From NCBI RefSeq assembly GCF_057098645.1, contig NZ_CM169472.1: a DNA stretch of 64,000 nt; one strand, written 5' to 3'. The notes below the pieces were generated by a model. That model was given only the letters and a program-made list of their open reading frames with translations. It did not search any database and was not told the DNA's origin. The translations under genes and the position numbers were made by a program. Shown one piece after another: positions 6,721 through 6,939 of the stretch; position 1 is the stretch's first letter, and every line of letters starts with the position of its first letter.

Positions 6721-6769
6721 AAAAAGGGCCGCTTTCGCGGCCCTTGAGAGTGATGGCAAAAGCAAAACT

Positions 6770-6870
6770 GCCTGATGCGCTACGCTTATCAGGCCTACAT
6801 ACTTCCTGCAATATATTGAATTTGCACGATCTTGTAGGTCGGATAAGGCGTTCACGCCGCATCCGACATG
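6770..6870. repeat. REP/BIME palindromic elements flanked by two identical GGGCCGCTTTCGCGGCCC hairpins (about 6725-6745 and 6899-6920)
   Basis: Classic REP motifs gcctgatgcgctacgcttatcaggcctaca and tgtaggtcggataaggcgttcacgccgcatccgaca. Confidence 0.8.
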
Positions 6871-6939
6871 AACAACGCGCACTTTACCAATAATCTAAAG
6901 GGCCGCTTTCGCGGCCCTTCTCACAAAACGTCTTACTGA

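Follow-up and report, generated by a model that had tools for sequence, protein, structure and literature searches.

The spacer between a prohibitin-family gene and tkt in the window analysed here (a 64-kb stretch of RefSeq contig NZ_CM169472.1, assembly GCF_057098645.1) contains the same GC-rich hairpin twice, on either side of a pair of REP palindromes, and raises the question of which part of this arrangement moved and which part was duplicated. Positions 6500-7150 are 100% identical to E. coli O145 strain RM9872, and the gene calls are those that RefSeq gives for the identical record (L001, whose coordinates become window coordinates when 499 is added). The prohibitin gene and tkt are convergent, with the REP spacer sitting between their two stop codons; cmtB is annotated upstream of the prohibitin gene, and loiP and speB past tkt. 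A preliminary description of this DNA had named an SPFH gene and tktA, in convergent orientation, as the flanking genes, which the RefSeq annotation and the Pfam Band_7 match bear out. It had also reported an exact repeat of the hairpin about 175 bp apart around REP palindromes, and this holds as well, with a spacing of 174 and two REPs between the copies. The features of the locus are as follows:

5812-6720, + strand: prohibitin-family (SPFH/Band_7) gene (RefSeq; Pfam Band_7, E = 5.6e-32)
6718-6720, + strand: TAA stop codon of the prohibitin gene
6719-6725: A7 tract, reading T7 on the - strand and overlapping the prohibitin stop codon
6723-6745: hairpin copy 1, left (palindrome 6724-6745; arms 6724-6732 and 6737-6745; loop TTTC, GAAA on the - strand)
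6746-6769, + strand: left outer motif GAGAGTGATGGCAAAAGCAAAACT (family consensus GAGACTGATGACAAACGCAAAACTG)
6770-6798, + strand: Y-type REP in inverted orientation, ending in CTAC (6795-6798)
6799-6833: long (L) linker, with an IHF-consensus-like site ATTCAATATATTG at 6809-6821 (- strand)
6834-6867, + strand: Z1-type REP, with its GTAG head at 6834-6837
6868-6897, + strand: right outer motif, …GCGCACTTTACCAATAATCTa (family consensus …GCGCACTTTGTCAGCAATCTG)
6897-6919: hairpin copy 2, right (palindrome 6898-6919)
6940-8931, - strand: tkt (transketolase, tktA locus; RefSeq), stop codon 6940-6942

The 18-mer GGGCCGCTTTCGCGGCCC has two sites on the + strand, at 6726-6743 and 6900-6917, and no other in the 64-kb window with up to two mismatches; 100 dinucleotide-preserving shuffles of the window yielded no match to it, again with two mismatches allowed. 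The full exact direct repeat is 23 nt long (AAAGGGCCGCTTTCGCGGCCCTT, 6723-6745 and 6897-6919; 174 from start to start), and each copy of the hairpin forms a perfect palindrome whose 9-bp arms enclose a loop of 4 nt. Both copies share the asymmetric loop TTTC, indicating that the duplication is direct and not inverted. The hairpin sequence itself is ordinary and reads as a common terminator design, since the same 26 nt of A-tract and hairpin (AAAAAAAGGGCCGCTTTCGCGGCCCTT) are conserved downstream of topA in the topA-cysB spacer (L011 598-623). No REP element adjoins the hairpin there, and the spacer that carries it is found at 96-100% identity in ~5,388 of 5,426 E. coli genomes.

Between the two hairpins, positions 6746-6896 (151 bp) align end to end by BLAST, at 80-90% identity, with dispersed copies at loci from other genomes, namely the entD-fepA, chbG-katE, tcdA-mltA, mngB and metE spacers. 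This homology starts and stops exactly at the hairpin repeats (L008: unit positions 27-177). By its sequence, the segment is one complete BIME-1 (also RIB or RIP; a REP pair of REPIN type). Inverted Y and Z1 REPs point their GTAG heads toward a conserved L linker with an IHF consensus site, the element lies between convergent stop codons, full-length copies occur at 36 loci, and some strains carry a tandem two-unit allele. The same architecture of Y and Z1 palindromic units joined by an L linker with an IHF site has been described for BIME-1 (Ton-Hoang 2012, PMC3333891). The locus alone is thus an ordinary BIME-1 and not novel. The IHF-like site ATTCAATATATTG is predicted from its match to the consensus WATCAANNNNTTR, with one mismatch. 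The outer motifs form imperfect terminal inverted repeats, ~9 of 12 positions being complementary in the family consensus and fewer in the window copy; the last base of the right motif is A in the window and G in most alleles.

An Rfam scan of the region matched RF02751 (ES036/CssrF) to the linker (6791-6833, - strand; 53.5 bits against a gathering score of 37.6) and naRNA4 (REP) to the Z1 REP below threshold, and found nothing else of relevance. The ES036/CssrF "sRNA" model seems to describe nothing more than the linker of BIME-1, in which case a match to it would point to a BIME-1 copy and not to an sRNA gene of its own. The REP doublet is predicted to fold into one long hairpin (fold z-scores of -6.4 and -7.1) in which the REP arms pair with each other, as do the outer motifs. 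For RNA of the tkt strand, the minimum-energy structure pairs the two hairpin copies arm to arm, with the element enclosed between them.

Other REP sequences lie elsewhere in the window. A second BIME-1-like copy at 29896-30010 (- strand), with 76% identity and without a linker, has a hairpin (GGCCAGCAAATGCTGGCC) adjoining its right end only. The loiP-speB spacer (9986-10250) contains three tandem Z-type REPs with a period of 113 bp, a BIME-2-like array that is also found in K-12 and O157.

The preliminary description had proposed that the hairpins probably act as a terminator for each of the convergent genes, an idea that the sequence supports for tkt only. On the - strand, copy 1 has a 9-bp stem with seven GC pairs followed by T7, the sequence of a canonical intrinsic terminator, and the site at 6745-6724 on that strand, followed by TTTTTTT, was the sole one called by a terminator scan. 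Copy 2, proximal to tkt, is followed on the - strand by TTTAGATTATT, a weak U-tract, and was not called. Read on the + strand, that of the prohibitin gene, neither copy is followed by a T-tract (TTGAGAG and TTCTCAC follow). Accordingly, the copy at 6745-6724 is alone in resembling a canonical terminator; since this left copy keeps the A-tract, it would serve as a full terminator for transcripts in the tkt direction. We infer that tkt transcripts would partly pass the proximal copy, bear the BIME-1 in their 3' untranslated region and stop at the distal copy.

To see how the element is flanked at other loci, one genome per species was scanned for an exact 20-nt linker word. Some of these are draft or metagenome-assembled genomes, and the survey covers copies with an exactly conserved linker motif. 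Element ends were set by alignment to the window copy, orthologous loci were collapsed and hairpins were called by simple heuristics. The scan returned 61 loci, nearly all in Escherichia species and Pseudocitrobacter, of which 36 are independent after collapsing. A flanking direct repeat with a score of at least 12 is present at 13 of the 36 and abuts both ends of the element in all 13. When the left flank of one locus was paired with the right flank of another, none of 1,260 such controls reached 12, the maximum being 11.5. Repeat length at the 14 loci scoring 10 or more is 13-29 nt, with a median of 20.5, and 11 of these 14 repeats are complete stem-loops with a dG of -7.7 kcal/mol or lower. 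A hairpin foot lies 0-3 nt from the element end for 17 of 26 left and 11 of 19 right ends that are intact, as against 1 of 78 (left) and 1 of 52 (right) control positions shifted outward. Judged by eye, the signature is present at ~11 of 15 loci with a full-length element and absent from three; about a quarter of the intact elements are without a flanking hairpin repeat (entD-fepA, L033, L040), and one locus (L024/L031) has only a 7-nt repeat, ATAGCAT, that is not a hairpin.

The hairpin-REP-hairpin arrangement, for which a search elsewhere had been proposed, is therefore not unique to the tkt locus. In the chbG-katE, tcdA-mltA and mngB spacers the same element is bracketed by other hairpins, specific to each locus; no unrelated locus was seen with GGGCCGCTTTCGCGGCCC on both sides of the element. 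The recurring junction can be written [A-tract][hairpin](T)/GAGAC…AATCTG/(A)[hairpin][T-tract], where the slashes mark the element ends, the A-tract stays at the left and the T-tract at the right. Mismatches within the stem are preserved in both copies at two loci (L019 and L035). At the first of these, in E. albertii, the copies share their stems, including a C·A mismatch, and have loops that are reverse complements of each other (TAAA and TTTA), which looks like a small loop inversion after duplication. In Escherichia sp. MOD1-EC7003, element and hairpin are tandemly duplicated at tcdA-mltA with a period of 162 (L069 14380-14685), a parallel to the three-hairpin tkt allele described below, and a further contig of this strain has five linker motifs 115-230 bp apart (L072 389-983).

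Alleles without the element exist at four loci (tkt, tcdA-mltA, metE-ysgA and uvrB-yvcK), and each has exactly one hairpin. About half of the sampled E. coli genomes are empty at tcdA-mltA and 162 bp shorter there; the left copy of the filled allele has two substitutions that are not in the empty one. At metE-ysgA, E. albertii has the element and nearly all E. coli lack it. At uvrB-yvcK, strain 98200 is empty and E69 has two hairpins, and in K-12 the left copy is cut down to GAAG. The short alleles of chbG-katE were considered as a further empty site and set aside as uninformative, the spacer having been replaced with a different hairpin. An empty allele was also sought at mngB; all 3,174 genomes with this locus carry the element.

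At the tkt locus itself, we counted alleles in 5,426 complete E. coli genomes, with figures that depend on BLAST coverage rules. The one-hairpin allele, with no element and a spacer of 45 bp (…TAAAAAAAGGGCCGCTTTCGCGGCCCTTctcacaaag…), is found in ~409 genomes, and the two-hairpin form or a larger one in 1,364 (at least 80% query coverage), the form seen in the window accounting for ~1,300. The junction of a three-hairpin, two-element array is found in up to 180, ~100 of them clean. Forms at this locus always differ in size by steps of the 174-bp unit of hairpin plus element, of which a strain has 0, 1 or 2; intergenic length near tktA thus varies among E. coli by multiples of 174 bp. A fourth form was seen in one strain examined, MS1685 (L004 1700-3000), where IS621, an IS110-family element related to bridge-RNA recombinases, is inserted in the Y REP of the same BIME-1 at the equivalent of window position ~6796. 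Its junctions are …cttatcaggcct/tgtattatccc… and …aacagtatct/acatacttcc….

Over 500 bp of flanking sequence, single-hairpin alleles sit on at least three haplotypes, 18-25 differences apart, that are interleaved with two- and three-hairpin ones, a pattern in which recurrent loss or gain and recombination look alike. The arrangement is old, given that the two-hairpin form has an ortholog in E. whittamii. There the hairpin on the tkt side matches that of E. coli exactly, and the one on the prohibitin side has a compensatory change of a G-C to an A-T stem pair and a different loop. Perfect identity of the copies is thus not universal, and in the B2 strains SE15 and MCJCHV-1 their loops also differ (TTTC and ATTT). 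In an arrangement of this age, the perfect identity seen in the window strain needs gene conversion, unequal exchange or selection. We infer that slipped or unequal recombination should readily delete the 174-bp unit or add it in tandem, since 22-nt direct repeats around a self-complementary element that IHF could bend would make it unstable and give rise to one-, two- and three-hairpin alleles. If the hairpin copies pair in DNA as modelled, this would favour slippage between the repeats, consistent with the tkt alleles and with the tandem array at tcdA-mltA.

K-12 and O157 have no prohibitin gene, and the hairpin after tktA differs (AAAAAAGGTCGCCGAAGCGACCTTTTT); their cmtB-tkt spacer is 313 bp long and AT-rich (L005, L006 2690-3005). 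O145, B2 and other strains have the prohibitin gene and the window-type hairpin at this cmtB-tkt position (window 5440-6940). The 3' end of tkt in the window (6940-7440) is 30-35 nt per 500 away from all other prohibitin-type alleles (L002, L003, L077-L081), and the prohibitin side is only 2-3 nt per 500 from the single-hairpin strains G5 and FDAARGOS_497. This combination of a divergent and a near-identical side suggests a recombination breakpoint at or near the prohibitin-tkt spacer in the O145 strain.

Taken together, these observations lead us to read the region, with a probability of about 0.8, as the trace left where a BIME-1 inserted at a terminator hairpin and the whole palindrome was duplicated as the target. 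The hairpin would be the target and lie outside the mobile unit, because the element recurs elsewhere with other, locus-specific hairpins and because element-free alleles have one hairpin. The preliminary description had suggested a small mobile or duplicated intergenic module; this is partly right but mistakes the roles, the mobile unit being the 151-bp BIME-1 and the hairpins the duplicated target.

Three other histories were weighed against this one. That the hairpins were from the outset two terminators, one for each gene, identical by chance or by local copying, with the REPs settling between them later, would suit the convergent genes, the GC-rich hairpin near each stop codon and the use of the same hairpin downstream of topA in ~5,388 genomes. 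We regard it as very improbable: some 409 genomes have one hairpin for both genes in a 45-bp spacer, no T-tract follows either copy on the prohibitin strand, the element homology stops exactly at the hairpins, and the same bracketing recurs with different hairpins at 13 of 36 loci as against 0 of 1,260 controls. The idea that the whole block of hairpins and REPs is a mobile module that moves as one draws on the exact repeats that bound it and on its differing copy number among strains. Against it, dispersed copies share the inner 151 bp and have a different hairpin at every locus, and topA-cysB, the only other site with this hairpin, has no element adjoining, which leaves this the least credible of the three.

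The remaining history is improbable, if less so than these two. The element would have inserted beside the hairpin without duplicating it, the hairpin would have been copied across later by slippage or template switching at the long palindrome, and the single-hairpin alleles would be secondary deletions. Several elements do have a hairpin at one end only, as at uvrB-yvcK in K-12, the unit clearly gains and loses copies (at tkt and in L069), and the two-hairpin form is old. Yet the one-sided cases are mostly elements truncated at the opposite end, and the same secondary event would be needed independently at 13 or more loci, with nucleotide precision at both ends. At tcdA-mltA, moreover, neither of the two substitutions derived in the left copy is present in the empty allele, and a recent deletion would have just 1 nt of microhomology to work with.

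Under the favoured reading of insertion with target duplication, the starting point would be one stem-loop (AAGGGCCGC-TTTC-GCGGCCCTT) with an A-tract at its left, in the 45-bp prohibitin-tkt spacer. An element of ~151 bp (GAGAC…Y REP–IHF linker–Z1 REP…AATCTG) would arrive directly beside it, and the entire 22-nt palindrome would end up on both sides as a direct, target-site-like duplication, with a length set by the structure of the target palindrome. Because the original hairpin would have had an A-tract only, the distal copy would be the canonical terminator and the tkt-proximal copy would be left without a proper U-tract.

Several ways in which the insertion could have taken place were considered. 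Duplication of half-hairpins by fold-back or in inverted form, following insertion into the loop, was rejected, as the two copies agree in their asymmetric loops and in their stem mismatches. Site-specific (att-type) integration was rejected too: the repeat is different at each locus and therefore cannot be carried by the element. The candidate enzyme, TnpA_REP (RAYT), cleaves single-stranded DNA at C^T only, forming a 5'-phosphotyrosine link; it depends on a REP with GTAG and acts at distances of hundreds of nucleotides. With this cleavage chemistry, RAYT alone would produce no duplication. RAYT-mediated single-strand insertion, taken as acting on both strands, was likewise rejected: on paper it leads to a heteroduplex in which two hairpins are looped out, and from there to daughters with a single hairpin each.

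We prefer a copy-choice model, at somewhat less than even odds. DNA synthesis would quit the target just past the hairpin, copy a donor BIME-1 from end to end and re-enter upstream of the target hairpin. The donor element would have hairpin feet of its own at its flanks, and the A/G-rich and C/T-rich feet common to terminators would supply the microhomology. A RAYT nick at …CCC^TT could provide the primer; on either strand this is a C^T at the hairpin's 3' foot. Repeats of variable length, and the 7-nt case too, are compatible with such a model. In a rather unlikely alternative, the hairpin or cruciform would be extruded and nicked at both of its feet, and the gaps then filled. Both models fit the footprint.

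More tentatively, we extend this reading beyond tkt and suggest that BIME-1/REPIN-type elements of Escherichia and Pseudocitrobacter may insert at the feet of terminator stem-loops and duplicate the entire palindrome, giving a target duplication that is measured by structure and variable in length. If so, simple IS200/IS605-style single-strand cut-and-paste would be excluded as the whole mechanism, and the position of these elements at the 3' ends of genes without loss of termination would be explained. The junctions suggest how insertion is tolerated: a bidirectional terminator becomes two copies, each retaining one of the tracts. The question of how REP, BIME and REPIN sequences spread dates from the 1980s and is still described as unresolved in papers of 2011 to 2026. 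A general footprint that combines precise element ends, targeting of hairpin feet and whole-palindrome duplication would matter beyond this locus as a concrete constraint on that spread and as a testable assay. The point worth pursuing is the reproducible hairpin-length target duplication, rather than the locus itself.

The window element agrees with the known BIME-1/RIB/RIP elements in having the same parts in the same order, in its extragenic position at 3' gene ends and in its dispersal in Escherichia (PMC3333891, PMC1187871). That BIME-1 is present in some isolates and absent from others was already known, according to Chiapello 2005 (PMC1187871), which cites Bachellier 1997. We found no mention of a hairpin or terminator duplication at BIME-1 ends in the accessible literature, a scope that does not take in the key BIME papers of the 1990s, and we claim no priority for the hairpin-length target duplication.

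REP doublets of the REPIN/RAYT system are thought to be mobilised by a single-copy Y1 HUH transposase, TnpA_REP. Like REPINs, the window element is a pair of inverted REPs predicted to form one long hairpin, and it shows low copy number and long persistence. The known RAYT cuts (at C^T beside the inverted REP and in linkers) do not match the ends of the 151-bp element. Single-strand transposition of the IS200/IS605 type produces no target duplication, whereas the window element shows a duplicated target.

In other respects the element resembles bacterial MITEs such as ERIC/IRU and Correia/NEMIS, which are likewise short and non-coding with imperfect terminal inverted repeats and flanking direct repeats. 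Correia elements have a central IHF site, and the window element shares a putative one. The duplications differ: those of MITEs are short and of fixed length, but the repeats flanking BIME-1 range from 7 to ~29 nt, follow hairpin size and track the length of the target palindrome. REPs have also been described as lacking MITE signatures (Delihas 2011, PMC3184786). Class C group II introns, IS1397 and IS621 (IS110 family) share with BIME-1 a preference for stem-loops at gene ends; unlike BIME-1, they encode their own enzyme, and their target duplication is absent or a few bp long.

The closest formal parallel to the two-nick model is the repeat duplication of CRISPR spacer integration. There, Cas1-Cas2 attacks the strands at opposite borders of a palindromic repeat and the gaps are filled, which duplicates the repeat; in E. 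coli this process involves IHF. Both arrangements have an insert between two direct copies of a palindromic repeat, and we draw this as a mechanistic analogy, claiming no membership. The tkt locus, unlike a CRISPR locus, has no array, leader or cas context, and its insert is a 151-bp repeat element as opposed to a 33-bp spacer.
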